64,000 nt of DNA from Jiangellaceae bacterium (lineage in GTDB: Bacteria; Actinomycetota; Actinomycetes; Jiangellales; Jiangellaceae), in assembly GCA_036566745.1 (NCBI GenBank), contig DATCVR010000339.1:2580-66579 (forward strand). Reading direction: 5' to 3'. The notes beneath the pieces were generated by a model. The model was not told where the DNA came from. It did no database searches and was given only the letters and a program-made list of their open reading frames with translations. Shown here in pieces: positions 17,368-35,265 of this stretch. Numbering within the stretch: the first letter of the stretch is position 1; each line of letters starts with the position of its first letter. Position numbers and translations under genes: made by a program.

Positions 17368-17423
17368 TTGACACCCGCCGAACCGGACTCTAGCGTGCCT
17401 CACCACGGTTTGAAACGTGTCAA
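17368..17423 (+). promoter_or_regulatory. Promoter (TTGACA-17-TAGCGT) plus LacI-type operator TTGAAACGTGTCAA for GH78 gene 1
   Basis: -35 at 17368-17373, -10 at 17391-17396, operator at 17410-17423. Confidence 0.55.
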
Positions 17424-17452
17424 TTACGGTCCGTCGTCAGGAGTCGGAGTCC

Positions 17453-20400
17453 GTGCCGCACCACCCGCCCACGCCGCCCGTCGACCCCGCCGGTGCACCG
17501 AACGTGGTGGATCTCCGGGTCGAGCGTCTGGTGAACCCGCTCGGTGTGGGTGAGGCGCGTCCGCTGTTCGGCTGGCGCCTGGAGGCCGCTGGGCGGGACC
17601 GCAGGCAGACGGCCTACCGCATCAGGGTCACCACCGACGATGCCGCGCTGGCGGTGTGGGACTCCGGCCTGGTGCGGTCGAGCCGCTGCCACGACGTGCG
17701 CCATGACGGCCCTCCGCTGCGCTCGCGCACGCGGTACCAATGGTCGGTGCGGGTGTGGGACGAGTCGGCCCGGTCCTCGCCCTGGAGTGCTCCGGCCACC
17801 TTCGAGACCGCCCTGGCCGACGACCAGTGGCACGCCGCCGCCTGGATCGGCTCGTCCATCGAGCGTGACGCCCGGAGGCTGCCATCGCTCGACCCGACCT
17901 CGCAGTTCGGCGACATCTGCCGGGTGTGGGCGCCGGACGTCGACGGAGCGGTGCCGCGGGCGGCGGTGTTCGGCACCGTCGTGTCGCTGCCGGACGAGCC
18001 CGTGGCGGGTGCCGGCGCCGTCGTGGTGGGTGCCGGGCACGCCGAGCTCTGGGTGAACGACACGCTCGTCGACCTCGATGCCGGTGGCGTCGTCGACGGC
18101 GCGCTGGTGGCCGCCCTGGTGCCGGGCCCGAACCGCATCGTCGTGAGCGCCGCCACCGATCTGGGCGGACCGCCGGGGGTGCTGGCGCGCGTGGACGTCC
18201 GGCTGCGGTCGGGGGCGACGATGTCGGTCGGCACGGACGGGCGGTGGCGGTGTGGCGACACGCCGGCTGCGGTGTCGGCGCCGACGTCCGCGCTGGCGGT
18301 CGAGGTGGGCGCGCACGGCGATCCGCCGTGGGGGCGCGAGGTCATCACCCACCGGCCGAGCCCTTACCTGCGCCGCGAGATCGACCTGCCCGCGCCGGTC
18401 CGTCGTGCTCGGGCCCGCTCCACCGCCCTGGGCGCGTACGAGCTGCGGATCAACGGCCGTCGCGTAGGGGAGAGCCGGCTGAGCCCGGGCTGGACCGACT
18501 TCGCCACCCGTGTCGCGTATCAGACCCATGACGTGACCGACCTGTTCCAGCCGGGTGCGAACGCCGTCGGCGCGGTCCTCGCGGACGGCTGGTACGCCGG
18601 TCACCTCGCCGACTGGGGCCCCTTCCAGTACGGCGACCAGCGGCTGTTCCGGATGCGGATCGACCTCGAGCTCGAGGACGGCAGCCGGGTCGTCGTGGTC
18701 ACCGACCGGGACTGGCGCGTCGGCGACGGTGCCACGCGGTATGCCGACCTCCAGAACGGCGAGGTGGTCGACCTCCGGCTGGAGCCCACGCGGTGGGACT
18801 GCCCCGGCTTCGACGACACCGACTGGGCGGCGGCGCTGGTGGCCGAGCCGTCGCACGGGCGGCTGGAACCTGAGTCGGCTCCGCCCATCGTGGCCACTCA
18901 GGAGATCCCCGCCGAGACGGTCGTCACCCGGGCCGACGGCGCCCACGTCGTCGACTTCGGGCAGAACGTCGTGGGCTGGGTGCGCCTGCGGCTCGCCGGG
19001 GCGGCCGGTACCCGGGTCCTGGTCCGGCACGCCGAGGTGCTCGACGCCGGGCCAGGCTCCGGACTCACGACGTCCGGCGAGCGGCCGTTCCTCTACACGG
19101 AGAGTCTTCGGCACGCCCGCTGCACCGACGAGTACATCCTGGCCGGGGACCCGGACGGCGAGTTGGCCGAGCCGCGCTTCACCGTCCACGGGTTCCGCTA
19201 CTGCGAGGTGATCGGGTACGACCGCCCGCTCGCGCCCGGCGACATCACGGCGGTGGTCGCGCACGCCGACCTCGAACCCACCGGCACCTTCGAGTGCTCC
19301 GACGCCCGGCTGAACCGGCTCCACGCCAACATCGGCTGGAGCCAGCGCGGCAACTTCCTGGCCGTGCCCACCGACTGTCCCCAGCGGGACGAGCGCATGG
19401 GCTGGACCGGCGACGCCCAGGCCTTCGCGTCGACCGCGGCGTTCGGCTACGACGTGCGGGGATTCCTGCGCAAATGGCTCCAGGACGTGCGCGACGCCCA
19501 GTTCGCCGACGGCTCGGTGCCGCACGTCGCGCCCGACCTGTTCACCAAGGCCGGCGTCGCCCGAGGTGACGCGGGGGGAGCTGCCGGGTGGGGCGACGCG
19601 ATCGTCGTCGTGCCGGCTGAGCTGGCGCGGCTGTACGGCGACGACCGCGTCGTGGAGGAGAACCTGGAGGCGATCGGCGCCTGGCTGGAGTTCTGCCGCG
19701 GGTCCAGCGCCGGCGGCATCCGTCCGGACAGTGGGTTCGGCGACTGGCTGGCGGTCACGCACACCCCGCGGGACCTCGTGGCCACGGCGTTCTTCGCGCA
19801 CTCGGCGCGACTGGCGGCCGGGCTGGCAGCGCGGGTCGAGCGCCCCGATCTCGTCGCCCGGTGGTCGGCACTGCACGCCGAAGTGCGGGCGGCGTTCCGG
19901 GCGCGGTGGGTCCGGGGCGGCGGTGTGATCGTTCCCGGGACCCAGGCGGCCTACGTCCTGGCGCTGCACTTCGGGTTGTTCGACGACGCCGAGCGTGACC
20001 GGGCGGCGGCCCGGCTGGCCGCCGAGGTGCGAGCCCGCCATGACCACCTGACCACCGGCTTCCTGGCCACGCCGTACCTCCTGCCGGTGCTGTCGTCGCA
20101 CGGGTACGAGGACATCGCGTTCCGGCTGCTCGGCCAGGAGAGCTATCCGTCGTGGCTGTACCCGGTGGTCCACGGCTCGGCGACCACGATCTGGGAGCGG
20201 TGGGACTCCTGGAGCGACTCGCGTGGCTTCCAGGACCCGTCGATGACCTCGTTCAACCACTACGCCTACGGAGCGGTCGGGGAGTGGATGTATCGCACGC
20301 TCGGCGGCATCGAGATCCTGGAGGACGGGCCGCACACGCTGCGGGTCCGTCCTCGTCCCGGCGGCGGGGTGACGTGGGCTCGGGCGACGCTGCGCACGGT

Positions 20401-20635
20401 GATGGGTGACGTCTCGAGCGAGTGGCGGGTCGGCGAGGGCCGCTTCGAGCTGCGCGTCGGCGTGCCCGTGGGCGCGACGGCCGACGTCCGGCTCCCGACG
20501 TCGCGGCTGGACGACGTGCGCGAGTCCGGTGCGGTGGTGGCCGCCACCGCCACCGCCGCCGCCGCCGACGTCGGCGCCGAGGTCTCCGTGATCGTCGGCT
20601 CCGGCCGGTACGAGTTCACCGCACCCTGCGGCTGA
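17453..20635 (+). CDS. Alpha-L-rhamnosidase, GH78 (no signal peptide)
   Basis: GH78 N-terminal pattern (VERLVNPLGV...FGWRLEA...QTAYRIRV...WDSG) and the catalytic-domain motif FLAVPTDCPQRDERMGWTGDAQ. The GTG at 17453 follows AGGAG. The ORF-track start at 17417 lies inside the operator. Confidence 0.85.
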   Translation: MPHHPPTPPVDPAGAPNVVDLRVERLVNPLGVGEARPLFGWRLEAAGRDRRQTAYRIRVTTDDAALAVWDSGLVRSSRCHDVRHDGPPLRSRTRYQWSVRVWDESARSSPWSAPATFETALADDQWHAAAWIGSSIERDARRLPSLDPTSQFGDICRVWAPDVDGAVPRAAVFGTVVSLPDEPVAGAGAVVVGAGHAELWVNDTLVDLDAGGVVDGALVAALVPGPNRIVVSAATDLGGPPGVLARVDVRLRSGATMSVGTDGRWRCGDTPAAVSAPTSALAVEVGAHGDPPWGREVITHRPSPYLRREIDLPAPVRRARARSTALGAYELRINGRRVGESRLSPGWTDFATRVAYQTHDVTDLFQPGANAVGAVLADGWYAGHLADWGPFQYGDQRLFRMRIDLELEDGSRVVVVTDRDWRVGDGATRYADLQNGEVVDLRLEPTRWDCPGFDDTDWAAALVAEPSHGRLEPESAPPIVATQEIPAETVVTRADGAHVVDFGQNVVGWVRLRLAGAAGTRVLVRHAEVLDAGPGSGLTTSGERPFLYTESLRHARCTDEYILAGDPDGELAEPRFTVHGFRYCEVIGYDRPLAPGDITAVVAHADLEPTGTFECSDARLNRLHANIGWSQRGNFLAVPTDCPQRDERMGWTGDAQAFASTAAFGYDVRGFLRKWLQDVRDAQFADGSVPHVAPDLFTKAGVARGDAGGAAGWGDAIVVVPAELARLYGDDRVVEENLEAIGAWLEFCRGSSAGGIRPDSGFGDWLAVTHTPRDLVATAFFAHSARLAAGLAARVERPDLVARWSALHAEVRAAFRARWVRGGGVIVPGTQAAYVLALHFGLFDDAERDRAAARLAAEVRARHDHLTTGFLATPYLLPVLSSHGYEDIAFRLLGQESYPSWLYPVVHGSATTIWERWDSWSDSRGFQDPSMTSFNHYAYGAVGEWMYRTLGGIEILEDGPHTLRVRPRPGGGVTWARATLRTVMGDVSSEWRVGEGRFELRVGVPVGATADVRLPTSRLDDVRESGAVVAATATAAAADVGAEVSVIVGSGRYEFTAPCG

Positions 20636-20689
20636 GCGCGGCGGGCGCGGGCGCACGTGGCCGGTCCCGGCCGTGCGTGGTGGTCGTCC

Positions 20690-20743
20690 TTGACCGCCGA
20701 TCTCGGGCCGACCTAGCGTGATCCGGGATTGAAACGGATCATT
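20690..20743 (+). promoter_or_regulatory. Promoter (TTGACC-18-TAGCGT) plus operator ATTGAAACGGATCATT for the enolase-paralog operon
   Basis: -35 at 20690-20695, -10 at 20714-20719, operator at 20728-20743. Confidence 0.55.
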
Positions 20744-20789
20744 GCGCCTGCCCCCGCGCTCGCCGCGATCGCGCGCTGAGAGGACTCCT

Positions 20790-22025
20790 GTGACCACGAC
20801 TCCAGGCGATCGGATCGTCGCCGTCCGGGCCTATTTCGAAGATCAGCCCGACGCTCCGGCCGCCGAGGCCGCGGCCGAGCCCGGGAGCACCGACGCTGGC
20901 GTGAGCGAACCGGAGAAGCCTGCCCACTGGCTCCAGGGCAAGGTCGCGAACCCGATGACGAAGTACGCCGAGTTCCGCGACAACCGGCACGCCGCGATCG
21001 GCCCGAAGGCCAACCGCGGTGTGATCGTGGAGGTCGAGAGCGCCTCGGGACACCGCGGGTACGCGACGACGTCGGGCGGCCTGGCGGTGGCGGCGATCAT
21101 CGAGCAGCACCTCGAGTACCTGCTCGTCGGCGAGAGTGCCTACTCCCACAGCCGGCTGTGGGACCGGATGTTCTCGAGCACCCTGCTGTACGGGCGCAAG
21201 GGCATCGTCCTGCACGCCATCTCCGGCGTGGACCTCGCGATCTGGGACCTCCACGGCCGGATCAGCGGCCTCCCGGTCCACGCCCTCCTGGGCGGCAAGA
21301 TCCGCGACGCCGTGCGCGTCTACGCCACGGGCCCGGAGCCCGCCACGGCCCGTGACCTGGGATTCGCCGGCTCCAAGCTGCCGCTCACGTACGCACCCTG
21401 CGAGGGCGAGGCCGGCTTCCGGGCCAATGTCGAGATCGCCGCGAAGGCCCGCGAGTCGCTGCCCGACGACTTCCCGATCATGTACGACTGCTGGATGTCG
21501 CTCGACGTCGACTACGCCGCGCGGCTGGCCCACGCCGTCTCCGACCTGGGCTTCGCTTGGATCGAGGAGCCGCTGCCGCCGGACGACTACTCGGGGCTGC
21601 GCCGCCTGCGCGACAGGATGCCGCCGGACATGATGCTGACGACCGGCGAGCACGAGTACACGGCCAGGGGATTCCGGCTGCTGTGCGAGGCCGGCGTCGA
21701 CATCGTCCAGCCCGACCCTGCCTGGTGTGGTGGCCTGACGGAGCTGCTGCGCATCTCGGCGGTGGCCCAGACGTTCGGCGTCAAGGTGATCCCGCACGTC
21801 GGAGGCATGGCCGCCTACCACTTCGTCGCGACCCGCCCCGACGGCGACCTGGCCGAGTTCCCCGTGCTCTCCGCCGACGGCGGCACCGTGACCGGGCAGC
21901 ACGCGCCGCTGTTCACCGGCGAGGTGCTGCCGGTCGACGGGTGGATCACCCCGAACGACGAGCCGGGCTTCGGCCTCACGCTGAACCCGGACGCCGTCCT
22001 GCGGCGAGCAGTCCCGGAGGGCTGA
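20790..22025 (+). CDS. Enolase-superfamily dehydratase, divergent paralog of L-rhamnonate dehydratase
   Basis: Collinear with rhmD (YDCWMSLDV, WIEEP, TGEHE, VQPDPAWCGGLTE, IPHVGG). The N-terminal GGADYHDQ..HWIDDHIA block is replaced by a different, longer segment. GTG start at 20790 after GAGAGGA. Confidence 0.8.
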   Translation: MTTTPGDRIVAVRAYFEDQPDAPAAEAAAEPGSTDAGVSEPEKPAHWLQGKVANPMTKYAEFRDNRHAAIGPKANRGVIVEVESASGHRGYATTSGGLAVAAIIEQHLEYLLVGESAYSHSRLWDRMFSSTLLYGRKGIVLHAISGVDLAIWDLHGRISGLPVHALLGGKIRDAVRVYATGPEPATARDLGFAGSKLPLTYAPCEGEAGFRANVEIAAKARESLPDDFPIMYDCWMSLDVDYAARLAHAVSDLGFAWIEEPLPPDDYSGLRRLRDRMPPDMMLTTGEHEYTARGFRLLCEAGVDIVQPDPAWCGGLTELLRISAVAQTFGVKVIPHVGGMAAYHFVATRPDGDLAEFPVLSADGGTVTGQHAPLFTGEVLPVDGWITPNDEPGFGLTLNPDAVLRRAVPEG

Positions 22026-23083
22026 TGAGACGTCCCCGGATCGCCGTCGTCGGCACCGGATGGTGGGCCGCCGCGCATCACATCCCGTCGCTGGCCGGCT
22101 ACGACGGCGCCGACCTGGTGGCCTTGTGTGACCCCGAGCGGGCGCGGGCCGACGAGCTGGCAGCGCGGCACGCCGTACCGGCCGTGTACGCCGACCTCGA
22201 CCAGCTGCTGCACGCGGGTGGCGTGGACGCGGTCGTGATCGCCACGCCGCACTCGACGCACCACCGGCTGGCCCGGGCCGCCCTCGACGCCGGACTCCAC
22301 GTGCTGGTGGAGAAGACGATGACCACCACCGCCGCGGACGCCTTCGACCTGGTCGTGGCGGCGGAGAAGGCCGGGCTGCACCTCAGCGTCGGATACACCT
22401 ACCAGCACGCCGCCACGGCCGAGCTGGCCCGCGCCGCCGTTCAGCAGGAGATCGGTGACCTGGTGCAGGTCGTGGCCGAGTTCGCCTCCGGCACCGAGTC
22501 GTTGTTCGCGGCGGCCGGCTCCGGCGACGAGGGCGACGCGGTGGACGCCCCGCACCCGGTCACGTACTCCGCCCGGCTGGGTGGCGGCCAGGCGCACACC
22601 CAGCTCACCCACGTTCTGGGGATGGTCTGCTGGGCCACCGGCCGCGAGATCGCCGACGTCATGGCCTTCGTCGACCATCGTGGCCTGGAGGTCGACGTCG
22701 ACGACGTGGCGGCCTTCCGGTTCACCGGCGGTGGCACCGGCGTGGTGGCGTCCACGGGGGTGGCCGGCGAGGTCGGCGGGATCCGCCACCACGTGCGCTA
22801 CCTCGGTACCCGCGGCACGGTGGAGCAGGACATGTTGTCGGCGCGGGTCGTGGTCCGCCGGGCCGACGGAACCCACACCGTCCACGAGCCGGGCGACGAC
22901 GGCCGGTCCACCTATCGGGCAGGTCAGCCGGCCCGCGCGTTCGCCGACCTCGTGGCCGGACGCGGGCCGAACCGCTCGCCGGGCAGGCCGGCGGCGGCCG
23001 CGGTCGCGTGCATCGAGGCGGTGCTGGAGTCGGCTCGATCCGGTCGGGTCGCCTCCGTCGAGCAGCTTCCGCCCCAGACCTGA
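22025..23083 (+). CDS. Gfo/Idh/MocA-family NAD(P) oxidoreductase (candidate sugar 1-dehydrogenase)
   Basis: RIAVVGTGWWA Rossmann motif and VLVEKTMT (EKP-like). TGATG overlap with the upstream enolase gene. Confidence 0.8.
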   Translation: MRRPRIAVVGTGWWAAAHHIPSLAGYDGADLVALCDPERARADELAARHAVPAVYADLDQLLHAGGVDAVVIATPHSTHHRLARAALDAGLHVLVEKTMTTTAADAFDLVVAAEKAGLHLSVGYTYQHAATAELARAAVQQEIGDLVQVVAEFASGTESLFAAAGSGDEGDAVDAPHPVTYSARLGGGQAHTQLTHVLGMVCWATGREIADVMAFVDHRGLEVDVDDVAAFRFTGGGTGVVASTGVAGEVGGIRHHVRYLGTRGTVEQDMLSARVVVRRADGTHTVHEPGDDGRSTYRAGQPARAFADLVAGRGPNRSPGRPAAAAVACIEAVLESARSGRVASVEQLPPQT

Positions 23084-23090
23084 GCGCCGC

Positions 23091-26000
23091 TCACCAGGTC
23101 CGCCGCGCGGCACTCCAGCCGACCTCGCCGAGGTGGAACGCCACCGGGACGGCCGGGGCGTCCGCCTGGTAGAGGACGCTGTCCGTGGCGGCGACGTCGT
23201 GGCGGAACCGCACCCCGGCCTCGACGGCGACGACGTCGGCGCGGCCGGCCCAGTCGCCGAGACCCGCCGCCACCCGGTTCCAGCCCGCCGGCCAGACTCG
23301 CGCGTACCCCACCCGCTCGCCCGCGGTGGCGCTGTGCACGCGCAGGACCAGCTCGGGCCGCATCCCATGTGGCGTGGCCAGGCACAGGTCGACCATCGCG
23401 TAGCCGAACGTCGCCGTGGTCAGGTCGAGTGGCTCCGGGAAGTCGATCCGCAGCAGCTGGGGGACTTCGGCGCCGGTGTCGGTGCGACCCGTCGCCCGGA
23501 CGACCGGCCCGCCGAGCTGCGCGTGATGGACCGGCATGCAGACGATGCCCTCGGGCAGGACGTCGAGGGCGGCGAGGTCGACGGTCGGGGTGAGCGACCC
23601 TGCCTCGACCGCCGCGGCCAGCCAGCCGCCTCCGCCTCGGACGTCGGACGGCACCGGCGCCCGCGCGGGTGCCTGGAACGGCGGCGTCGGCGCAGGTGAC
23701 GATGCAGTCGGCGCGGGCCAGCCGGTCTCGGTGCGGTGGCGTCCGGATCCCAGCTCGACGTCGTCCGTGCCCGGCAGTCGCACCGTCGCCGACGAGCCGA
23801 CCGGCACCTCCACGTCGACGACCAGACGGTCGCCGACGCGCTGCCAGCCGGCCCGGACGGTGCCGCGCACCGTCTCGGTGACCGAGGCCGCCCGGCTCAC
23901 CCCGTCGACCGGCTGCGGAGCGACGACGAACGACCGGAACCCCGGTGCCGACGGCCGCACTCCGACCAGCGTCGTCCACACCCATCCGGCGAACGGTCCG
24001 CCGAGGCCGACGTGGTCGAGCGACCCCGTGCCGGTGTTGCGCGGGTCGATCCACCACGACTCCCAGAGCGTTCCCGGACCGTCGACCAGCATCGCGCCCA
24101 CACCGGGCTGGGCCGGCTGGTGGATCGCGTCGCTGATCGCCTGCGAGCGCCCCACACCGGCCAGCGCCCGCACGACCGTGCTGGTGGCGCCGAAGCCGGT
24201 GGTGATCCGGTTGCCCCGGGCGTGCATGACCTCGGCGACCCGCGCTCCGAGCAGCCGTGCCTCGGCGGGGGTGGCGAGGCCCGCGGCCATCGCCACGCCG
24301 GACGAGCCCTGTGAGCCGTTGCCCCAGGTGCCGCGCTCGGGGTCGTGGAACACCGCGCGCGCGGAGGCTCGCAGGGTGGCCGCCTGGCCTCGCCGGAGCT
24401 CGGCCGCCGGGTCGTCGCCCAGCGCGGCCTCGAGCTCGGCCAGGCTGTCGAGGGCGTCCAGCGCGGCTCCGGTGTGCAGGACCTCCGGCGGGGTCTGTTC
24501 GAGGCCGAGCCAGTCGTGGCCGTAGCTGATCGCGGCCCCGGACACGACGCCGTCGCGGACGAGTCCGAGCTGGTAGTCGGCCCAGCGCCGCAGGCTGTCG
24601 AGGTGGGCCTCGACCACGCTGCGGTCGCCATAGTGGTGCCAGTGGCCGAGCAGGACGCGTTGCAGCGCCGAGCCCCACACCGGGTCCGGCGGCGTCGCGT
24701 CCGGGCGCAGGCTGGGTGCGATGGCGGGGAGGGCGCCGTCGTCGCGCTGGCTCGTAGCGAGGTCGCCCAGCCACTTGCGGTAGAAGCCGGCCAGGTCGAG
24801 GTGGGCGAGCGCGAGGTCGGTGGTGGCCGCGGCGTCGCCGGTCCAGCCCGACTGCTCGCGGGTGGGGCAGTCCTCGGGGATGCCGTGGGCGTTGTTGAGC
24901 TGCGTCCGGGACGCCGCGGCCACGAGCCGTTCGAGCGTGGCGTCGTCACTGCTGAAGCCGGCCAGCCGGGGGAGATCGGAGTGCAGGACCAGCGCGTGGA
25001 CCTCGACCTCGGCGTCGTCGGGCAGCCCGATGACCTCGACGTAGCGGAAGCCGTGGAACGCGAACCACGCCTCGGCCTGCTCGCCCGGGCGCCCGGCGGC
25101 GGTGTACTCGACGGACTGGCGGTGCCGGCCGGTGTCGTAGGGCATCTTCAGGTTGGTGGTGTCCACGCCGCCGTCGGGGTGCAGCAGCTCGCCGTGGACC
25201 AGGGTGAGCGAGGTGCCCGGCGGCAGCGCGCTGTGCAGCGTGAGGCGGCTGCGTCCGGCGATGTTCTCGCCCGCGTCGAAGATCCGGCTCCCCGTGGTGG
25301 TCCGGCGGAGCTCCCGGGTGCCGAGCTCGGCGCCCACCCGGATCGGGGGCGCGGGATCGGGCTCGATCCGGCGCGGAAGCAGGGGCACCGGCTCGGTTCC
25401 CGTCGTCACGCCGGCCGGTCCGAGCACCGTCGCCGGTTCGCCGCCGGACGCGTCGGCGGCGTGCCGGCCGTCGTGGGCTTCGACGTAGAACGCCTCGTCG
25501 ACGACGACCTGGGACCGGCGGGTGCGCCAGCCCGTCCCGGTGCCGGCGCGATGCACCGAGCCGTCGGGCAGCACCGCGACGACCTCGGCGAGAACGCGCG
25601 GATCCAGCCCACTCGCCCGCCAGTGGCTCGCGCCCAGGACCAGCTCGAGGTCGTTCTGGCCCTCGCGCAGCAGATCCGTGACGTCGTAGGTGCGGCTGAG
25701 GGCGCGGACGGGATCGGTGCGCGACGGCTCGGCGGTGCCCGGATTCACCGCCACGCCGCCGATCGAGGCGCGGTACAGACCTTGTCCGGTGACGTGCAGG
25801 CGGGCCCGGATCGGCGCGCCGGGCAGGACGACGACCCCGGTCACGGCGCTGGTCGAGGGTGCGCCGAGCCACGACGCCGACCAGTCCGCCGCGCTGAACG
25901 GCCCGGTCTCGAGCGCCACCGGATCGGCCCAGGGCGACCACGCGTCGTGCTCGTCACACACCCGGACCGTCCACGCCCACCTGCCGTGTGCGGTCAGCTC

Positions 26001-26276
26001 GGCGTCCGGCCGGATCCAGGTCGACTCCGCGGACTCGACCCGGCCGGAACCCCAGGTCAGTTCGGCGCGAGGGCAGCCGCGCGGGTCGAGTCCGTCCGGC
26101 GCGACCCGGATCTCGTACGCGGTCTGGGCCTGTCCGTCGCGCCACAGGGGGACGACCCACGACAGGCGGGGGCGCGGCTCGATCGCGACGTCCACGAACC
26201 GGTCCGGCCGGGCGGGCTGATCCGCGGGCGGACGGTCGTCGACCCGCAACCGGATCGGCGCGGGACTCGACGACAT
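23091..26276 (-). CDS. Alpha-L-rhamnosidase, GH78, with an extra C-terminal module of about 210 aa (no signal peptide)
   Basis: QTAYEIRV...WGSG N-terminal pattern and GIPEDCPTREQSGWTGDAA. ORF trimmed to MSSSPAPIRL at 26276, 2 nt after the upstream stop. Confidence 0.85.
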   Translation of the reverse strand: MSSSPAPIRLRVDDRPPADQPARPDRFVDVAIEPRPRLSWVVPLWRDGQAQTAYEIRVAPDGLDPRGCPRAELTWGSGRVESAESTWIRPDAELTAHGRWAWTVRVCDEHDAWSPWADPVALETGPFSAADWSASWLGAPSTSAVTGVVVLPGAPIRARLHVTGQGLYRASIGGVAVNPGTAEPSRTDPVRALSRTYDVTDLLREGQNDLELVLGASHWRASGLDPRVLAEVVAVLPDGSVHRAGTGTGWRTRRSQVVVDEAFYVEAHDGRHAADASGGEPATVLGPAGVTTGTEPVPLLPRRIEPDPAPPIRVGAELGTRELRRTTTGSRIFDAGENIAGRSRLTLHSALPPGTSLTLVHGELLHPDGGVDTTNLKMPYDTGRHRQSVEYTAAGRPGEQAEAWFAFHGFRYVEVIGLPDDAEVEVHALVLHSDLPRLAGFSSDDATLERLVAAASRTQLNNAHGIPEDCPTREQSGWTGDAAATTDLALAHLDLAGFYRKWLGDLATSQRDDGALPAIAPSLRPDATPPDPVWGSALQRVLLGHWHHYGDRSVVEAHLDSLRRWADYQLGLVRDGVVSGAAISYGHDWLGLEQTPPEVLHTGAALDALDSLAELEAALGDDPAAELRRGQAATLRASARAVFHDPERGTWGNGSQGSSGVAMAAGLATPAEARLLGARVAEVMHARGNRITTGFGATSTVVRALAGVGRSQAISDAIHQPAQPGVGAMLVDGPGTLWESWWIDPRNTGTGSLDHVGLGGPFAGWVWTTLVGVRPSAPGFRSFVVAPQPVDGVSRAASVTETVRGTVRAGWQRVGDRLVVDVEVPVGSSATVRLPGTDDVELGSGRHRTETGWPAPTASSPAPTPPFQAPARAPVPSDVRGGGGWLAAAVEAGSLTPTVDLAALDVLPEGIVCMPVHHAQLGGPVVRATGRTDTGAEVPQLLRIDFPEPLDLTTATFGYAMVDLCLATPHGMRPELVLRVHSATAGERVGYARVWPAGWNRVAAGLGDWAGRADVVAVEAGVRFRHDVAATDSVLYQADAPAVPVAFHLGEVGWSAARRTW

Positions 26277-26278
26277 GC

Positions 26279-28303
26279 TCAGGCCCCCTGGTCGTCGGCG
26301 AGGAAGGACAGGAGGTTGACCGCGATGGTGTCCGGCATGATCGCCATGCCGCCGTACCTGCCGGTGGTGGAGTTGTGGGTGTCCGGCAGGCACAGGTCGA
26401 ATCGGCCCTCGCGGTAGGCGTCGAGGGTCGCGGGCAGGTTGTGTGGGCGCCACGAGTCGTCGTCATGATCGAGCAGCCAGCGCACCGCGGCCCAGGTGAC
26501 GCCCTTCTGGAAGCGTCGCCAGTCGATCTCCGGATCCGCCTCGGCGAGATCCAGACCATGCGCGATGGCCAGCGCGAATGTCGCCAGCACCTCCCACTGC
26601 ACGTGGTCGCGTACCCAGTGCGCGAAGTACCAGTCCGACGAGCACAGGCAGGGCTTGGTGTTGTAGAGCATCGGGGTGTCGCGCGGCTCCCACAGGTGGG
26701 TGAACGCGAGCAGGGTACGCAGCCAGTGGGCCGCGCGAGCCCGGTACCGGGCGTCGCCGAAGACCCGGTGGCCCAGCTCGTAGGCCACCGCGGCGTGACC
26801 GGCGGCGAGGAGGTTGGGTGCGTGCAGGGGCGTCTCCCAGAAGTCGCCACCCTCGGGCCGGTGCAGGTCGAGGCACGCGTCGAGGGCCCGCCGGGCGCCC
26901 TCGGCGAAGGCCTTGTCGCCGGTGGCGTCGTGCAGCTCGAAGAGCCGGATCGCCGGGGTCATGCTCAGGTCGAGGGCGGTGTCGCCGGCCAGGCCCATCG
27001 GCGCCACGAGGTCGCGCGCCACCACGAAGTCGTCCTTGCTCTTGTGTCGGCCGTCCGGCTCGAAGGCGAAGGTGCCGTCGTCGCGCTGGTGGGACAGCAG
27101 CTCGTGCCCCTCGGCACGCAGTTCGTCGACGCCGGGCTCGACGCGCGGAGGCAGGGTGGCCAGCTGGTCGACCAGGTGCCGGGAATGCGGGCTCTGCGGG
27201 AACCGCTCGACGTAGCCCGCCGCGAACGCGGGCGCGGTGGGACGGACGTCGGTCGGGGTCTGCGCGGGTCCGTAGCCGCGGCCGTCGTGCCAGAGGTGGG
27301 TGGTGACCGCCTCGGCGATGCGGTGCAGGGTCTCCTCCAGCGGCCACCGTGGCGCCGGAGGCTCGGGCAGGCCGTGCCGGAGCACCCAGTCGGTGACGGC
27401 GTCGAGGCTGCGTCCGGCAACGACGCTGATCTCGGCGCCGAGCTCGATCCGCTGGCCCTTGTGCAGTTCCATCGGCGGATCGGCGTGCCAGCCGTCGCCG
27501 GAGAGGTCGCGCGCCTCCGGCAGCATGAGCCCGAGCAGTGAGTTGTCGCGGCGCTCGACCACGTTCGGCGAGGAGAACACCGGCTGGGGGTGCTCGCGGC
27601 TCATGCTGAACCAGCCGGTGGCGTCCTGGTCGGGATCCCACGACAGCGCCACCGCGGTGCCGTGGTGCGACACCGCCATGACCGGCACCGACACCGTCTG
27701 GCGATGGGGGACCGTCCGCATCGCCCACGGGTCGCGGAACCAGTCGGTGCCGCTGGTCCACTCCCGGTCCAGCGCCCACTCGACCCCCGGCAGCAGGGCG
27801 TCGTCGCGGGCCGCTCCGAACGAGCCCTCGCCCACCCGCAGCCAGGGCCCGCGCAGGTAACGCACATAGAGGTCGGCCTGCGACTCCAGCCGATAGTCGA
27901 GCCGGAGCCGGGCCGCCGTGGCGTCGAGGGTGAGGGTGACCCGGCCGGTGATCGCCGGACCGTCGAAGGGCGAGCCGATCCAGCTGCCGAAGGACGTGGT
28001 GCGCAGCGCGTCGGCCACCACCATCGACCGGACCTCGAACGCCAGCTGCTGCTCGCCTTCGGCGCCGGCGCTCGACTCGACCTCGGCCGCCTCCAGCCGC
28101 ACCGGCACCGGCGAGTCCCGCAGCGACAGCTCGCCGAGGTGGTCGAGCACACCCAGCAGGGTGCCGTCCTGAGCGACGAGCTCGGCCCAGCCCCAGCCGG
28201 TGGTGCGGCGGTGCGCCTCCACCCGCAGGGCGTGGTTGGCGATCACCCGCGTGTCGTGTCCGTACACCGCGTGGCGATAGCGCGGCTGGGCCGGGGTCGG
28301 CAT
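26279..28303 (-). CDS. Hypothetical 674-aa cytoplasmic protein with no family assignable by eye (beta-rich N-terminal half, helical repeat/toroid-like C-terminal half)
   Basis: Strong SD (CCAGGAGGCCACGATG), high GC3, tight packing between the amidohydrolase and GH78 genes. The C-terminal half is rich in helical G-x-A-x repeats, plus HQRDDGTFAF. Confidence 0.7.
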   Translation of the reverse strand: MPTPAQPRYRHAVYGHDTRVIANHALRVEAHRRTTGWGWAELVAQDGTLLGVLDHLGELSLRDSPVPVRLEAAEVESSAGAEGEQQLAFEVRSMVVADALRTTSFGSWIGSPFDGPAITGRVTLTLDATAARLRLDYRLESQADLYVRYLRGPWLRVGEGSFGAARDDALLPGVEWALDREWTSGTDWFRDPWAMRTVPHRQTVSVPVMAVSHHGTAVALSWDPDQDATGWFSMSREHPQPVFSSPNVVERRDNSLLGLMLPEARDLSGDGWHADPPMELHKGQRIELGAEISVVAGRSLDAVTDWVLRHGLPEPPAPRWPLEETLHRIAEAVTTHLWHDGRGYGPAQTPTDVRPTAPAFAAGYVERFPQSPHSRHLVDQLATLPPRVEPGVDELRAEGHELLSHQRDDGTFAFEPDGRHKSKDDFVVARDLVAPMGLAGDTALDLSMTPAIRLFELHDATGDKAFAEGARRALDACLDLHRPEGGDFWETPLHAPNLLAAGHAAVAYELGHRVFGDARYRARAAHWLRTLLAFTHLWEPRDTPMLYNTKPCLCSSDWYFAHWVRDHVQWEVLATFALAIAHGLDLAEADPEIDWRRFQKGVTWAAVRWLLDHDDDSWRPHNLPATLDAYREGRFDLCLPDTHNSTTGRYGGMAIMPDTIAVNLLSFLADDQGA

Positions 28304-28351
28304 CGTGGCCTCCTGGGTTCCTGGATCGGGCGGGCGGGGCAGCTGGCCCGG

Positions 28352-29251
28352 TCAGGGGAGCGGCGTGGCAGCGGGCACGGTGGAGGGCCGGCGGGTGCGC
28401 AGGACCTGGTCGAGGGTGCCGCCCAGCACGAGCCCCAGCTCGATCGCGTCCCACCACGGTGAGAGGTCGCGCACGACGGCCAGGGACTGGGTGTACGTGA
28501 GATGGGTGCGCGCGGCCGGGAAGTCCGATCCCCAGGCCAGCCGGTGCGCGCCGAAGGCGTGGGCGATCGGCCGGGTGATCCGCTCACGCGCCTCGGCGTA
28601 CGGAAAGCTCCACGACGGCACCGTCAGGTAGTGGTACCCCGAGATCTTGACGTGCACGTTCGGCAGCTCCGCGAGGGCGAGCAGGGCGGCGAGGTCGGCG
28701 TCGAAGGTGGGCGAGTCCAGCCGGACGCCGCCCTGGTGGTGCAGCAGGATCGGCAGGCTCGGATGACGTCGCGCGACCTCACGCAGCGCGGCGAACCAGG
28801 CCGGCGTCACCGCGAGCGAGGCCACCAGGTCGAGCTCGGCCGCCGCGGCGAAGAACTCCAGCCCGTCGTCGTGGGCGAACCATCCGTCGTCGGTGTCGCC
28901 GACGTAGTGGGTGAACGCGCCCAGCTCGTAGCGCTCGACGCTCTCGCGGAGCCGTTCGGCCGCGCCGGGGCGGTGGTGTTCCGGCCGCCACACGCAGTCG
29001 ACGTCGGCGACCACGACCAGCCGGTCCGGATGCCGGGCGGCCGCCGCGGCGACGTAGTCGTTGTCGTCGTCGTTGGCGAAGTCGGGGCCGATCTCGTGCC
29101 CGATGCGCGCACACACGACGGCCGCGCGTTCGACGTCGTGCCGGTCCATCTCGTAGAGCAGGGCCTCGACGGAGCCCTTGTGGTCGGCGTCGGGTACCCG
29201 CGCGTCGTAGGGCCAGCGTCGCCAGGCATGGCAGTGGCTGTCGAGGATCAC
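28352..29251 (-). CDS. Amidohydrolase-2 family protein (second copy in the window)
   Basis: VILDSHCHAW metal motif, LLHHQGG, WGSDFP. GTG start at 29251 after GAGG. Confidence 0.75.
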   Translation of the reverse strand: MILDSHCHAWRRWPYDARVPDADHKGSVEALLYEMDRHDVERAAVVCARIGHEIGPDFANDDDNDYVAAAAARHPDRLVVVADVDCVWRPEHHRPGAAERLRESVERYELGAFTHYVGDTDDGWFAHDDGLEFFAAAAELDLVASLAVTPAWFAALREVARRHPSLPILLHHQGGVRLDSPTFDADLAALLALAELPNVHVKISGYHYLTVPSWSFPYAEARERITRPIAHAFGAHRLAWGSDFPAARTHLTYTQSLAVVRDLSPWWDAIELGLVLGGTLDQVLRTRRPSTVPAATPLP

Positions 29252-29259
29252 TCGTGGCC

Positions 29260-29592
29260 TCAGATGAGGTGGCGCCGGGCCGCCCAGGCCACGACCTGGA
29301 TGGTGCTGACGACGCCGAGACGGTCGCACATCGCCCGTGAGCGCCGGCGGATGGTGCGGTCGGACAGGTCCAGGCGCCGGGCGATGGCCTCGATGCACAG
29401 GCCGTCGGCGAACAGCGAGAGCAGCGCCAGCTCGTCGACGGTGAAGACGGGCGGACGCGCGCCGTCGGCCGCGGTCACGGTCGAGCCCGCGGCCGGCGCC
29501 GTGTCGCCCTCGAGCGGCGGGCAGACGCGCAGATGCGGGTGTCGGTCCTGCGTGGGGTGGGCCACCGGGGCGGAAGAACGGTTCAGCGTCAT
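29260..29592 (-). CDS. LuxR/GerE-type HTH protein with no receiver or ligand domain (110 aa 'solo' DNA-binding domain)
   Basis: C-terminal FTVDELALLSLFADGLCIEAIARRLDLSDRTIRRRSRAMCDRLGV fits a GerE HTH. The N-terminal 50 aa are low complexity. Confidence 0.6.
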   Translation of the reverse strand: MTLNRSSAPVAHPTQDRHPHLRVCPPLEGDTAPAAGSTVTAADGARPPVFTVDELALLSLFADGLCIEAIARRLDLSDRTIRRRSRAMCDRLGVVSTIQVVAWAARRHLI

Positions 29593-29649
29593 GGCGTCGA
29601 CCTGTTCGGGAGAGCGGATTTTCGCCTGATCTGATGTTTCTCAGGTGTG

Positions 29650-29711
29650 AACGTACGGGGTCTACGCGGTGACGGTCAATCGGTGTTCGGTAACTATTTG
29701 ATACGGTTCAA
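29650..29711 (-). promoter_or_regulatory. Candidate promoter (TTGACC-18-TACGTT on the minus strand) with a weaker operator-like site TTGAACCGTATCAA upstream
   Basis: -35 is the complement of 29674-29679 and -10 the complement of 29650-29655. The 14-mer is the complement of 29698-29711. This is a locally AT-rich gap. Confidence 0.35.
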
Positions 29712-29721
29712 CCAGGTGAAC

Positions 29722-29752
29722 GGCCCCGGCCGCGACGAGCGCGACCGGGGCC
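29722..29752 (-). terminator. Hairpin immediately after the secreted-enzyme gene
   Basis: GGCCCCGGCCGCG (29722-29734) pairs with CGCGACCGGGGCC (29740-29752): 13 bp with one mismatch and a 5-nt loop. Confidence 0.5.
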
Positions 29753-29769
29753 GAATCTGGCCGGCGGGC

Positions 29770-32700
29770 TCAGGCGTCCGCGCCGAACCAGCCGATCGAG
29801 TCGACCTGGAAGTGCGGGTTCCAGGTTGGGTAGTCGGCTCCCACGGCGTGCATGGTCACCTCGACGTGATCGACGGACGAGCGCCCCGCCCAGCCCGAGA
29901 CGTCGAGCGACACCTCGTTCCAGCCGTCCGGCGCGTAGGGCTCGGTGACGGTGAGCGTGTCCGTCCCCGAGGCCAGCGTGAACGTGACCTCGTAGCTCGT
30001 CGCGCCCGGCGCGCCGCCGTAGGAGTTGACGTACGCGACCACCGTCGCCGCGTCGCCGAGGTCGATCGGTTCGGCGGCGTCGACGAACATCGTCTTGGGC
30101 GCCAGCGACGATCCCACCGTCGCGGCCCCGTCCAGGGCGTGCGATCCGCTCTGGGGCGAGCCCGGGCCGTTGGCCGTGGAGGTCACGGCCGCCACCGAGT
30201 CCATGCCCTCACCGGCCTGCCAACCCTGGACCGTGCCGTCGTCGAAGTCGTAGATCGGCGTCGCGACGGGCACCGGCTTGGGCGGGACGTCGACCTTCTC
30301 CGCGTACTGCCGGGTGGCGATCGAGAAGCACATCGTCGGGTCGTACGGGTCGGCCGGCGCGGAGCCGGTGACCGTCACCGTGAAGGTCCGGCTCTCGCCC
30401 GGAGCGAGGCCCTGGGCGCCGAGTTCGGCCGGGCTGACCCGGATCCCGTCGCACGCCTTGACCTCGATCTCCTCCTCGAGCGGGCTGAGGTCGTCGTTGC
30501 GCACCGTGACCTCCACGGACTCGCCCACGCCGATCCCGCCGGTCGCGGCCGCGTCGATCTCGACGTTGACCGCGCGATCGGCACCGGCGAGCTGGCGAGC
30601 CACCTGGACGTCGTCGAGGTCGACGTGTCCGGACCACTCGGCGTTCGTGTCTCCGCGTGCCCAGACCTTGATCCGCGCGATCGAGCTGCGCCCGTCCCAG
30701 CCGGACAGGTCGACGCTGACCCGCTGCCAGTCGCCGTTCTCGGGCAATCGGGCCGTGCCTTCGGCGACGCTGCCATCGGCGCCGTACACCTTGACCTTGG
30801 CGTAGCGGGACCCGATGTCGGCGTCCGCGGGGATTCGCACCCTCAGGCTGAGCGCCGTCGCCGACGACGCGTCGAGCGGCTCGGGGAGGACGACGTCGGT
30901 GCCCCTCCAGAGCTTGGCCAGGTTGGCCGCCATGCCTGCCTCGTAGGTGAAGCTGGTGCGCAGGAATCCGCCGGTGGCCGCCACGGTGTTGGCCGCGTCC
31001 GAGGTCCGCCAGCCCTGGGTGCCGTCGGAGAAGTCGGACACCGTGGTGGTCTTCCTGGGCGTGGCGGTGCTGCTCGCCCCGACCGTCACCGGGAGGTCAC
31101 GTACCGCCAGCGCGTCCGGATCCCAGCCGTCGACCACCTCGGACCAGTCGTCGATCCCGATGACGTCGAGGGCGAAGTCGGTGACCTCGAGCGAGCGCTC
31201 GGTGTCGATGTACTTGAACACGTCGTAGATCAGCTTCTGCTCGGCGGGCGGTGCGGGCGCGTCGACCGTGTCGTCCCACCACCACAGCCCCAGCCGCAGT
31301 CCGCCCTCGACCTTGTGGTCGACGTGGCGGTGCAGGATGAAGGAGTCGATCGCGGGCAGGAAGCGGATCTTGTAGTACGCCAGCGCATAACAGGCGGCCT
31401 GCAGCTTCTCCGCCTCGGCCGACGTCCCCGGGGTGTTGCAGCCCTGCTCGGAGAGGATGACGCGACGCGGCTGGCCGTTGTACAGCTGCTCGTCTCGGAG
31501 CAGGTACTCGTTGAGCACCTCGATGTTCTTGAACGTGATGCGCTCGGTGGTCTCCGGGTCCGGCGTGGCCGTCACGTCCTCCCAGAACGCCGGATCCAGC
31601 AGGTTCTCCGGGTAGGGGTGGTGGGCGATGTACCAGGGGTAATCGCCGTGTGCCTTGGTCAGCGCGTTCAGCCCGTCCACCACGTCGCGGCCCGGATAGA
31701 AGCGTCCGGGCGGGTCGGTCGGTCCGCTGGCGGTGCGCCACGAGTGGGTCAGCGAGGTGTAGGTGCGAGCCTCGTCGTAGGCCGTGCGGGTGGCGAGGTA
31801 GGTGATCCGCAGGGCCCGCTCGTAGGCGAGCAGGAATTCGTCGAGCGTCTTGACTCCCATGTTCTGCCACACCCACTGCGCGTCGACCTCGTTGCCGACG
31901 ATGAAGCCGGTGGCGCGGCCGAACTGCTGGTCCTCGCGGGTGTAGCGCTCGGCCAGGAACTCGATCGCGGCCGTGTAGTACGCCACCCCCTCGGCGGTCT
32001 CGGTGTTGAAGCCGAATACCGGGCCGCCGCTGAGGTCGGCGTCGGGGTGCTTGAGCACCGGCCAGGCGGAGTTGGCCGCCCCGTCGCGGTACAGGATGAG
32101 GATGAGGTTCACCACCGCGCCGTTGTCCGACAGCGGCTTGATCTGGCGGTCGAGTCCGGCCACGGCGTCGGCGTCGAAGTAGTACTCCGTGCCGTTCGAC
32201 GTGAACGGGATCGACTGCCCGTCGCCCTTGTCCTCGAGCTGCATGAGCGAGTTGAACGCGACGTTGATGCCCGCGTGGCCGATGCCCAGCTCCTCGGCGT
32301 CCGCGGTCAGCTGGACCTGCAGCCCCTTCTTGGTGGGGCTGTCGGGATAGGGGAACTGGTTGGTGGAAGTGATCTGGACGTCGTCGACGTAGTGGTACGT
32401 CCCGAGGGCGGCACCGTCGGCGACGGCCAGGTACTTGGCGTAGTAGAGGTCACGCTCGCCCGAGGTGCGGGCGACGTCCGCGCTGAAGGTGCCGTCTGCG
32501 GCGGTCGTGACGGTGGCGACCGGCTCGCCCGAGGCCCACGACGACTCGTCGGCCTCGGTGGCGAGCGCGTAGAGGTCCACGGTCGATCCGGCGGCCGCGA
32601 GGCCCGAGACCGTGACGGCCGCGTCGGTGGCGCGCACGCTCGTCACACCGGTTCCGGCCGCTGCCGGGGAGGCGGGTGGCGCCTCGCCGGCGGTGCTGGT

Positions 32701-32799
32701 GGGTGCGGCGACGGCTGGCGTGCCGGCCAGGGCGCTCCAGCCCAGCGCTAGTGCGAGCAGCGGCGACAACGTGGTGCGGAGGTGACGGGGTCTTCGCAT
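29770..32799 (-). CDS. Secreted multidomain glycoside-hydrolase-like protein (signal peptide, Ig-like domain, clan-GH-A-like TIM barrel, repeated beta-sandwich/CBM-like modules)
   Basis: Signal peptide MRRPRHLRTTLSPLLALALGWSALAGTPAVAA. FIVGNEVD (Asn-Glu acid/base-like) and VILSEQG (nucleophile-like). Two D-F-[SD]-D-G-T-Q-G-W module starts. My recollection is that the barrel resembles Pfam DUF5722 (unverified). Confidence 0.8.
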   Translation of the reverse strand: MRRPRHLRTTLSPLLALALGWSALAGTPAVAAPTSTAGEAPPASPAAAGTGVTSVRATDAAVTVSGLAAAGSTVDLYALATEADESSWASGEPVATVTTAADGTFSADVARTSGERDLYYAKYLAVADGAALGTYHYVDDVQITSTNQFPYPDSPTKKGLQVQLTADAEELGIGHAGINVAFNSLMQLEDKGDGQSIPFTSNGTEYYFDADAVAGLDRQIKPLSDNGAVVNLILILYRDGAANSAWPVLKHPDADLSGGPVFGFNTETAEGVAYYTAAIEFLAERYTREDQQFGRATGFIVGNEVDAQWVWQNMGVKTLDEFLLAYERALRITYLATRTAYDEARTYTSLTHSWRTASGPTDPPGRFYPGRDVVDGLNALTKAHGDYPWYIAHHPYPENLLDPAFWEDVTATPDPETTERITFKNIEVLNEYLLRDEQLYNGQPRRVILSEQGCNTPGTSAEAEKLQAACYALAYYKIRFLPAIDSFILHRHVDHKVEGGLRLGLWWWDDTVDAPAPPAEQKLIYDVFKYIDTERSLEVTDFALDVIGIDDWSEVVDGWDPDALAVRDLPVTVGASSTATPRKTTTVSDFSDGTQGWRTSDAANTVAATGGFLRTSFTYEAGMAANLAKLWRGTDVVLPEPLDASSATALSLRVRIPADADIGSRYAKVKVYGADGSVAEGTARLPENGDWQRVSVDLSGWDGRSSIARIKVWARGDTNAEWSGHVDLDDVQVARQLAGADRAVNVEIDAAATGGIGVGESVEVTVRNDDLSPLEEEIEVKACDGIRVSPAELGAQGLAPGESRTFTVTVTGSAPADPYDPTMCFSIATRQYAEKVDVPPKPVPVATPIYDFDDGTVQGWQAGEGMDSVAAVTSTANGPGSPQSGSHALDGAATVGSSLAPKTMFVDAAEPIDLGDAATVVAYVNSYGGAPGATSYEVTFTLASGTDTLTVTEPYAPDGWNEVSLDVSGWAGRSSVDHVEVTMHAVGADYPTWNPHFQVDSIGWFGADA

Positions 32800-32822
32800 G
32801 GCGGACTCCTGTCCGGCGGGGT

Positions 32823-32866
32823 TGAGACGTTTCAGAGACTGTGGCCCAGCAGGTACCCGGAGGCAA
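32823..32866 (-). promoter_or_regulatory. Operator TGAAACGTCTCA with CAGTCT -10 (minus strand) upstream of the secreted enzyme gene
   Basis: The operator is the complement of 32823-32834, the -10 of 32836-32841, and a possible -35 TTGCCT of 32861-32866 (19-nt spacer). Confidence 0.45.
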
Positions 32867-33064
32867 CGGTCCGCCGGCCCGGTGACCTGATCCGGTCAGG
32901 TGGCGGGCCGGTGCGGGAGCTCTGGTGGGTGAGCCGCCGCGCCATGCCGGACGACACCTGAGCGGTCCCTGACCGGTACCGGCCGGGGCCTCGCGCGATC
33001 GCGGGACGGCTGCCTAGCGTCGGAGCCGCCGAACCCGTTCACGGACCTCCCGAGGAGACCCACG

Positions 33065-35109: not shown

Positions 35110-35238
35110 GGCGCTCCCTTCGGAGCAACGTCGGGCAACACGGTGGCGCGGCCGCCGAGGGTGGCCGTGACCGGACACGGTGCTGCGCAGGTCGTGCCGG
35201 CGCGGCAATGATAGGCCGTGTTCATCACCAGGCGTCAT

Positions 35239-35254
35239 GTTCGCTCTAGAGAAC
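35239..35254. promoter_or_regulatory. Imperfect 16-bp palindrome GTTCGCTCTAGAGAAC (candidate IclR operator)
   Basis: 6 of 8 half-site matches around a perfect CTCTAGAG core. It is unusually AT-rich for this genome and lies 11 nt before the ALDH GTG. Confidence 0.3.
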
Positions 35255-35265
35255 GGTCGGACAGA

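Follow-up and report, generated by a model that had tools for sequence, protein, structure and literature searches.

The minus-strand gene at 26279..28303 of a 64,000-nt stretch of DNA from a Jiangellaceae bacterium (the window, 72% GC; gene and protein are called T below) encodes a 674-aa protein of an unannotated family, which is predicted to join an N-terminal beta-sandwich to a six-hairpin (alpha/alpha) toroid and lies directly beside a glycoside hydrolase family 78 (GH78) alpha-L-rhamnosidase gene. Our results make it probable that T is a catalytic carbohydrate-active enzyme (CAZyme) acting on oligosaccharides. Judged from sequences and models, there is about an even chance that it is, more precisely, a catalytic subunit with exo-acting glycoside hydrolase activity, from an undescribed sandwich plus six-hairpin toroid family. 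A wider proposal, which we put forward tentatively, is that T founds a new GH family, possibly a new clan, with an active site formed by an N-terminal beta-sandwich loop and the toroid, and that T, DUF5722 and GH99-like proteins together make up a previously unrecognised module, present in at least eight phyla, that degrades a methyl-pentose-rich (rhamnose-containing, often sulfated) glycan.

T begins with an ATG, and its GC content per codon position (0.74/0.51/0.93) is the typical coding pattern for a window of this composition. An identical protein (P0001) is encoded on a 53-kb ENA metagenome contig, where independent public gene calls agree on its boundaries and on the genes next to it. 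The first-pass annotation of this DNA had described a real coding frame with coding-type third-position GC (GC3), a strong AGGAGG Shine–Dalgarno sequence, an end 2 nt before the GH78 start and no signal peptide, and all of these readings held. The GC3 is 0.93, and the public gene call is identical; AGGAGG is present 5 nt before the ATG; and the TGA stop codon of T (26279–26281) is followed by "GC" and then by the GH78 ATG (26276), as both the sequence and the public gene call indicate. GH78 may be translationally coupled to T.

The N-terminus of T (MPTPAQPRYRHAVYG...) contains no hydrophobic signal sequence, and the protein is cytoplasmic in its source organism. Across the family, members from Actinomycetota, Bacillota, Chloroflexota and Deinococcota likewise had no signal peptide and began directly at a conserved MP.Y..ASY sequence, and signal peptides were typical in Bacteroidota, Planctomycetota, Latescibacterota, Ignavibacteria and similar diderm phyla. 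Enzymes that complete the breakdown of imported oligosaccharides are usually periplasmic in diderms and cytoplasmic in monoderms, as seen here. This split localisation argues against a role in cytosolic monosaccharide catabolism or as a phosphorylase.

T had been called unassignable, and this proved correct in each library that we compared (Pfam 2025, NCBIfam June 2026 and PDB 2026). No Pfam-A family matched at E ≤ 10 and no NCBIfam family at E ≤ 1. Against PDB sequences, T as a single sequence gave only noise, and a 57-sequence profile gave no match. The source names of close homologues were all "hypothetical protein", and none of these proteins had a precomputed Pfam domain. A tblastn search of T against 72,556 plasmids returned no match, and our literature search found no paper describing the family. 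No confident hidden Markov model or structural match to a characterised family appeared in Pfam, NCBIfam, the PDB or Foldseek. T is not a divergent rhamnosidase: its profile aligned to GH78 and GH106 profiles with an hhalign probability below 1% (0.2% against 36 GH78 sequences), and it did not match Bac_rhamnosid6H (PF17389) or the flanking GH78 domains, which both GH78 genes of the window do match. Comparison with profiles of the co-located families (GH78, GH106, DUF5722-like, c15, c16, PKD/c7, GH43 and GH92) gave hhalign probabilities of 11% or less.

An AlphaFold2 model of full-length T, built with an alignment of 57 homologues from at least six phyla (alignment A1) as input, had a mean predicted local distance difference test score (pLDDT) of 85.9 and a predicted template modelling score (pTM) of 0.89. 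DSSP assigned strands up to residue 296 of the model, followed by about 14 helices over residues 299–673; the earlier suggestion of a beta-rich N-terminal half of about 300 aa and a C-terminal alpha/alpha toroid was therefore borne out. The pLDDT fell below 50 only at residues 186–196 and 555–564, both of which are strongly conserved loops. In a full-length Foldseek search of the PDB, matches had E values of 2.5e-9 to 1e-5 with TM scores of only 0.2–0.28, and were mostly beta-sandwich-containing CAZymes (glycosidases, phosphorylases and lyases) with a toroid, barrel or propeller attached. They came from GH94, GH116, GH63, GH65-type, GH101/129, GH38 and polysaccharide lyase (PL) families PL26 and PL27, among which GH94, GH116, GH63, GH65-type and PL27 enzymes also have a toroid. 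A toroid-only search recovered AGE-type isomerases/epimerases, GH76, GH88/105, GH127 and PL27 (E about 8e-4 to 2e-2, TM 0.24–0.46); the 50 matches listed were nearly all alpha/alpha-toroid proteins, mostly six-hairpin enzymes, at probabilities of 0.66–1.00. Together with the roughly 14 helices of the model, these matches would place T in the six-hairpin (alpha/alpha)6 fold class, which is a structural class and not a family. The fold had thus been guessed rightly, and no close solved structure was found.

The family is large and well conserved. A cut-off of E ≤ 0.001 gave more than 400 T homologues, and each of the 120 listed had an E value below 1e-230. The closest named relatives, from Jiangella species, share 75–77% identity with T, and close homologues keep 48–60% identity across Actinomycetota, Chloroflexota, Bacillota, Deinococcota, Armatimonadota, Planctomycetota, Latescibacterota, Ignavibacteria and Bacteroidota (including gut Alistipes). 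Mean column identity in A1 was 58%, with invariant clusters of acidic, basic and aromatic residues and many conserved polar residues. A profile search of 1.84 billion cluster representatives identified 1002 relatives of T, including a distant tier of proteins of about 750 aa and of 1000–1300 aa that is homologous over 606 columns spanning both domains (hhalign probability 100%, E 1.6e-67). The large forms bear CBM9, NPCBM_assoc, CARDB, Ig-like, dockerin/cohesin or type IX secretion system (T9SS) sorting domains, and one distant-tier protein has a GH42-like region; the domain make-up of these large forms is the build of secreted polysaccharide-degrading enzymes. In P0213, a distant relative of 1626 aa, a dockerin and a cohesin occur on the same chain as a T9SS C-terminal sorting domain; modules of the cellulosome type and of Bacteroidota secretion are rarely mixed in this way. 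We inspected the genomic context of two distant-tier proteins; one adjoins ABC sugar permeases, and the other context was uninformative.

Conservation across both tiers points to a small set of candidate functional residues. E181, S184, W222, Q406, R482, P483, E484, W489, E490, H494, W527, W538, Y547, T549, W563, W570, W595 and D641 are at least 95% conserved in the close family and in the distant tier. Six of these (R482, P483, E484, W489, E490 and H494) lie in one signature loop of the toroid. The most conserved segment of the N-domain, residues 172–200, holds E181 and S184 together with E175, a position that is E or D throughout the close family, and includes the low-pLDDT loop at 186–196. 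The motifs HQRDDGTFAF and CLCSSDW, which the first-pass annotation had quoted, are both present (residues 405–414 and 552–558). However, the cysteines of CLCSSDW vary in the close family (C552 84% and C554 81% conserved, otherwise V, S or T) and are missing from the distant-tier consensus, so they are not a catalytic signature.

Gene neighbourhoods connect T to glycan degradation across phyla. We fetched 80 genome loci, called and clustered their open reading frames (ORFs) and annotated the cluster representatives; T was called in 71 loci, 50 of which were at least 15 kb long (large loci). A GH78 or GH106 rhamnosidase lay within 10 kb of T in 26 of the 50 large loci, DUF5722 or a GH99-like family of about 600 aa in 23, one or the other of these two groups in 37, and a sulfatase in 18. 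In about half of the large loci rhamnose plays a part, and in about a third sulfate esters do. A rhamnosidase directly adjoined T in 16 of the 71 loci, and the linkage noticed in the window extends across phyla.

DUF5722 and the GH99-like family are the most constant partners of T across phyla, at least as constant as GH78. Single-linkage clustering had placed both in one heterogeneous cluster (c1), apparently joined via multidomain or fused members, which we split with jackhmmer. The GH99-like family has no Pfam assignment and shows weak similarity to GH99 around an NEW motif; it was found in 29 of the 71 loci, in 14 of them as the same-strand gene directly upstream of T, and does not occur in the window. 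Its members include L064:8031-9890, L013:8158-9936, L037:8252-9955 and L025:8037-9749, among others. The two families are fused in two genomes into proteins of about 1290 aa (L045:4219-8109 and L063:5998-9870). DUF5722 occurs in T loci of other phyla (L005, L034, L037, L045, L049, L059, L063, L064, L074, L076 and L077).

Other recurring neighbours of T were SusC/D pairs, ABC sugar importers, GH43, GH92, GH127, DUF2961, GFO oxidoreductases, xylose-isomerase-like TIM barrels and URO-D-like proteins. A compact operon in Truepera runs solute-binding protein, permease, permease, T, ADH, GFO, MR_MLE, Amidohydro_2, GH78. No GH88/GH105 unsaturated-uronyl hydrolase and no PL was among the neighbour families identified in these scans. 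In Bacteroidales, an unannotated family of about 590 aa with no Pfam or PDB match (c15) recurs in T loci in the order T, sulfatase, GH43, c15, GH106 (L057:16198-17976; also L036, L043, L045, L050, L067 and L082). In Anaerolineae (Chloroflexota loci L013, L018, L020 and L024), T sits amid three to five GFO_IDH_MocA genes and several proteins of about 260–270 aa, and no rhamnosidase is close by. Among the other neighbours of T overall, xylose-isomerase-like TIM barrels rank with the commonest; if the Chloroflexota proteins of about 260–270 aa were such barrels, the set would resemble oxidative (3-keto) glycoside cleavage pathways.

The architecture of T is a known type of enzyme layout and not categorically new. 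GH94, GH65, GH15, GH63, GH116 and GH78 enzymes have the same domain order and overall architecture, gave the best full-length Foldseek E values and, as proposed for T, act on oligosaccharides in the cytoplasm or periplasm. In GH65 and GH94 structures, loops of the N-domain often contribute to the active site. These sandwich plus (alpha/alpha)6 enzymes differ from T in that they show no sequence or profile similarity to it (TM about 0.2), and T, unlike them, carries the most conserved segment of its superfamily in the N-domain. GH76 alpha-1,6-mannanases and the AGE superfamily are the best toroid-only structural neighbours (TM 0.38–0.46). GH76 enzymes use an adjacent Asp-Asp pair; T has D424-D425, which is invariant in the close family but not conserved in the distant tier. 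Unlike T, GH76 and AGE enzymes have no N-terminal sandwich, and T has no match to their Pfam families.

GH127 beta-L-arabinofuranosidases (DUF1680; HypBA1) share the six-hairpin toroid, and HypBA1 was in the toroid-only Foldseek list, but their domain order is reversed and TM scores were 0.24–0.30. GH127 is defined by a Cys nucleophile and a Cys3-Glu zinc site, as seen in HypBA1 structures, and we found no conserved counterpart of either in the close family or in the distant-tier consensus. One distant-tier protein that NCBI labels GH127 has a match to PF07944 below threshold. The distant relative P0291 scored 16.1 bits against PF07944, below the cut-off of 24.9, and T itself gave no match. 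With hhalign against four GH127 sequences, the distant tier reached a probability of 75% over two hairpins and T reached 14%. We therefore rejected membership of T in GH127, the similarity being below threshold or limited to two hairpins, although a remote fold relationship is possible.

In the hydrolase reading, the catalytic centre would lie at the domain interface, where the toroid loop RPEG..WE..LH (E484, E490 and H494), D641 and an N-domain loop with E175, E181 and S184 may come together, with invariant tryptophans lining it. The secreted DUF5722 enzyme would cut a rhamnose-containing glycan outside the cell, and an ABC system would import the fragments. Cytoplasmic T would then remove a residue or linkage that GH78 cannot, the adjacent GH78 would release L-rhamnose, and this sugar would feed the isomerase and oxidative catabolic genes of the window. 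Our results establish the gene and its conservation, the predicted fold, the lack of a family match, the gene neighbourhood and the distribution of signal peptides; from these we infer the hydrolytic chemistry, the catalytic residues, the exo action, the order of steps and the substrate. The first-pass proposal of a candidate new glycoside hydrolase or lyase family is supported, in that the lack of a family match, the sandwich plus toroid fold, the cytoplasmic location and the rhamnosidase linkage all stood. We favour a hydrolase over a lyase because E181, E484, E490 and D641 are conserved across the superfamily among many tryptophans, and because the neighbour families identified include no GH88, GH105 or PL.

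It is unlikely, on balance, that T is instead an eliminative enzyme acting on a rhamnose-linked uronic acid, either as an oligosaccharide lyase or as a uronate dehydratase. Precedents are PL27 (an L-rhamnose-alpha-1,4-glucuronic acid lyase), the former GH154 glucuronate dehydratases and the ulvan dehydratase P29_PDnc. PL27 (BACCELL_00875, PDB 5no8) resembles T in its sandwich plus toroid and its rhamnose-related substrate; it had the best TM score among the full-length matches listed (0.28) and was also found in the toroid-only search. In addition, the close family has many invariant basic, His and Tyr residues (H420, K423, R482, R529, Y547, K550, R565 and H567), and the pairing of sulfatase and rhamnosidase recalls ulvan-type units of glucuronic or iduronic acid and rhamnose 3-sulfate. 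Context-based assignment can also mislead in this direction, as GH154 was reassigned from hydrolase to glucuronate dehydratase (PMC12269599). Nevertheless, GH88, GH105 and PL enzymes, the characteristic partners of eliminative enzymes, are absent from the neighbour families identified, and the distant tier keeps the glutamates but varies at most of the basic positions. PL27 and GH154 have structures in the PDB, yet the family profiles matched no PDB sequence, 5no8 included. We found no sequence similarity to PL27 (BACCELL_00875/BT0263), and TM scores of 0.28–0.32 are far below the level of a fold family. We rejected GH154/glucuronate dehydratase membership (reference proteins BcGDH and BD-beta-Gal, PDB 8OI4), since T had no PDB sequence match and GH154 was absent from the 50 Foldseek matches listed per model. 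The published catalytic-residue pattern of the ulvan dehydratase P29_PDnc (PL37-related), compared by eye only, had no counterpart in T.

An AGE-type isomerase or epimerase (such as mannose isomerase, cellobiose 2-epimerase or sulfoquinovose isomerase) acting on a released sugar or disaccharide is quite improbable. The best toroid-only Foldseek matches do fit it, being D-mannose isomerase, an AGE-family protein, cellobiose 2-epimerases and YihS (E 8e-4 to 1e-2, TM 0.34–0.40), as do the invariant His and Arg residues in the toroid and the manno configuration of rhamnose. Yet no Pfam family, those of the AGE type among them, matched T even at E ≤ 10, and the conserved 300-aa N-domain of T, with the most conserved segment of the superfamily, is missing from AGE enzymes. 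Nor does the T family resemble cytosolic isomerases in its localisation: diderm members are exported, and the distant relatives, large and secreted, bear CBMs, dockerins or T9SS tails.

Less credible still is a non-catalytic protein (carbohydrate-binding, scaffolding or regulatory) that travels with glycan-degrading genes. Such a role would accord with the lack of a catalytic motif matched to a known family and with constant partners, DUF5722 and the GH99-like family, that are likewise of unknown function. It sits poorly with identity of about 50% across phyla, dozens of invariant polar residues gathered in loops of both domains, separate binding modules (e.g., CBM9) already present in distant relatives, and a close GH78 spacing and a localisation switch that are typical of enzymes. 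A GH94/GH65-type glycoside phosphorylase acting on an imported disaccharide is the least probable reading: the best Foldseek E values were to GH94 cellobiose phosphorylases (2.5e-9), with a GH65-type enzyme also listed, and T, which is cytoplasmic in its source organism, likewise joins an N-terminal sandwich to a toroid, but TM scores were only about 0.2, there was no sequence match in the PDB or Pfam, many members have signal peptides and relatives are periplasmic or secreted, and phosphomutase domains were present in only 2 of 123 scanned neighbours.

Several points weigh against the hydrolase reading itself. The activity of every member of the T family is a prediction from sequences and models, and GH154 is a precedent for a glycosidase assigned by context that turned out to be a uronate dehydratase (PMC12269599). 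The structural neighbours of T are remote (TM ≤ 0.46) and include non-hydrolases (AGE isomerases/epimerases, PL27 and terpene cyclases). The two most conserved loops (186–196 and 555–564) are the least confident parts of the model, and it is conservation that suggests that an N-domain loop may reach the toroid centre. Rhamnosidases are missing from the 10 kb around T in about half of the large loci, so a rhamnoside substrate is not universal; the Alistipes loci carry GH92 instead. Finally, the novelty of the family is judged against Pfam, NCBIfam and the PDB, and a CAZy family missing from Pfam and the PDB could already hold T, which is the chief risk to that judgement.

Table 1. Positions of T, its parts and neighbouring genes in the window
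Feature	Position	Strand	Basis
T, 674-aa protein of an unannotated family (beta-sandwich + alpha/alpha toroid)	26279..28303	-	ORF and translation; GC3; public gene call; no Pfam, NCBIfam or PDB match
Shine-Dalgarno AGGAGG, 5-nt spacer before the ATG of T	28309..28314	-	direct sequence reading
N-terminal beta-rich domain of T, residues 1-296, super-sandwich type	27416..28303	-	DSSP strands in AlphaFold model; full-length Foldseek matches to beta-sandwich-first enzymes (e.g., GH94, GH116, GH101/129 and PL26/27)
Most conserved N-domain segment, residues 172-200 (PGVEW..REWTSGTDWFRDPWA.R.VPH)	27704..27790	-	invariant columns; hhalign with distant tier; pLDDT
C-terminal alpha/alpha toroid of T, residues 298-674	26282..27412	-	domain model (pLDDT 84.9, pTM 0.88)
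Signature loop R482-P-E484-G-G-D-F-W489-E490-T-P-L-H494-A-P-N497	26813..26860	-	joint alignment; alignments A1 and A3
GH78 alpha-L-rhamnosidase, 1061 aa, no signal peptide	23091..26276	-	five Pfam GH78 domains; best PDB relative 6i60, E 8e-72
Amidohydro_2 gene, 299 aa, lactonase-type family, 48 nt upstream of T	28352..29251	-	Pfam; frame analysis; public gene call
Small LuxR/GerE-type helix-turn-helix gene, 110 aa, between DUF5722 and Amidohydro_2	29260..29592	-	Pfam GerE E 1.4e-5; GC3 0.83-1.0; public gene call
Secreted DUF5722 protein, 1009 aa, signal peptide, first gene of the cluster	29770..32799	-	Pfam DUF5722 E 1.4e-130; signal peptide; co-occurrence
Second GH78, 1072 aa, convergent with the T cluster	17417..20635	+	Pfam; PDB 3w5m E 5.7e-218

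In the window, T belongs to a same-strand cluster in the order DUF5722, GerE-type regulator, Amidohydro_2, T, GH78 (Table 1). A longer open frame (28352–29707) overlaps and hides the GerE gene, and per-frame GC3 and the public gene call favour the small gene. The DUF5722 protein had no PDB sequence match, and we found no paper mentioning DUF5722; it is a candidate second uncharacterised glycanase. A scan of 22800–33200 found no promoters or terminators, a scan that is uninformative in an actinobacterium of 72% GC, and no convincing operator or palindrome motif shared among 14 presumed intergenic regions of the window emerged from a search. Convergent with the cluster are the second GH78, a full-length homologue of Streptomyces SaRha78A (3w5m) with no signal peptide at its called GTG start, an enolase-superfamily dehydratase and a GFO-type dehydrogenase.

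Elsewhere, the window carries regulators (LacI, AraC and GntR), an ABC permease, a lipoprotein solute-binding protein, a PhyH dioxygenase and additional genes of the MR_MLE, Amidohydro_2, FAA-hydrolase, GFO, aldehyde dehydrogenase and FMN-dehydrogenase types. Catabolic genes of two types lie in 9185–23083 and 33065–49142. The oxidative-type genes comprise two MR_MLE, two Amidohydro_2, two FAA hydrolase and two GFO genes, Aldedh and FMN_dh; isomerase-type genes comprise a xylose-isomerase-like TIM barrel (43012–44220) and an aldolase–SDR fusion (47052–49142). We take these catabolic genes to be parts of oxidative (LRA-type) and isomerase (RhaI/RhaEW-type) rhamnose routes. The window is a rhamnose catabolic island with two routes at once, a duplication that may mean that a second deoxy-sugar is also catabolised. 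A 298-aa ORF at 7247–8143 (plus strand; GC3 0.95) had no Pfam match. An AraC regulator paired with a PhyH-type iron/2-oxoglutarate-dependent dioxygenase occurs in the window and in the Truepera T locus, and URO-D-like proteins, whose family includes methyltransferases, adjoin T in several other loci (positions for these observations: window 14370–16151; L004 4385–6154; L001 12094–13215; L069 5503–6636). Speculatively, the PhyH and URO-D-like proteins could be sugar O-demethylases, in which case the substrate might contain methylated rhamnose or fucose.

Rhamnose-rich and sulfated methyl-pentose glycans are abundant in plant gums, pectins, green algae, diatoms, cyanobacteria and microbial exopolysaccharides, and to our knowledge no full account of how enzymes break them down exists. 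If T is catalytic, it would represent a new CAZyme family with about 1000 cluster representatives and would offer a handle on two further uncharacterised families, DUF5722 and the GH99-like proteins. Orthologues of T are present in cultured strains (Jiangella, Paenibacillus and Alistipes hominis). T, DUF5722 and the GH99-like family appear as a conserved glycan-degrading module in bacteria of soil, sediment, digesters and the gut, Alistipes included, and enzymes that open linkages beyond those cleaved by rhamnosidases would improve the annotation of carbon-cycle and gut-glycan genes and may find biotechnological use.

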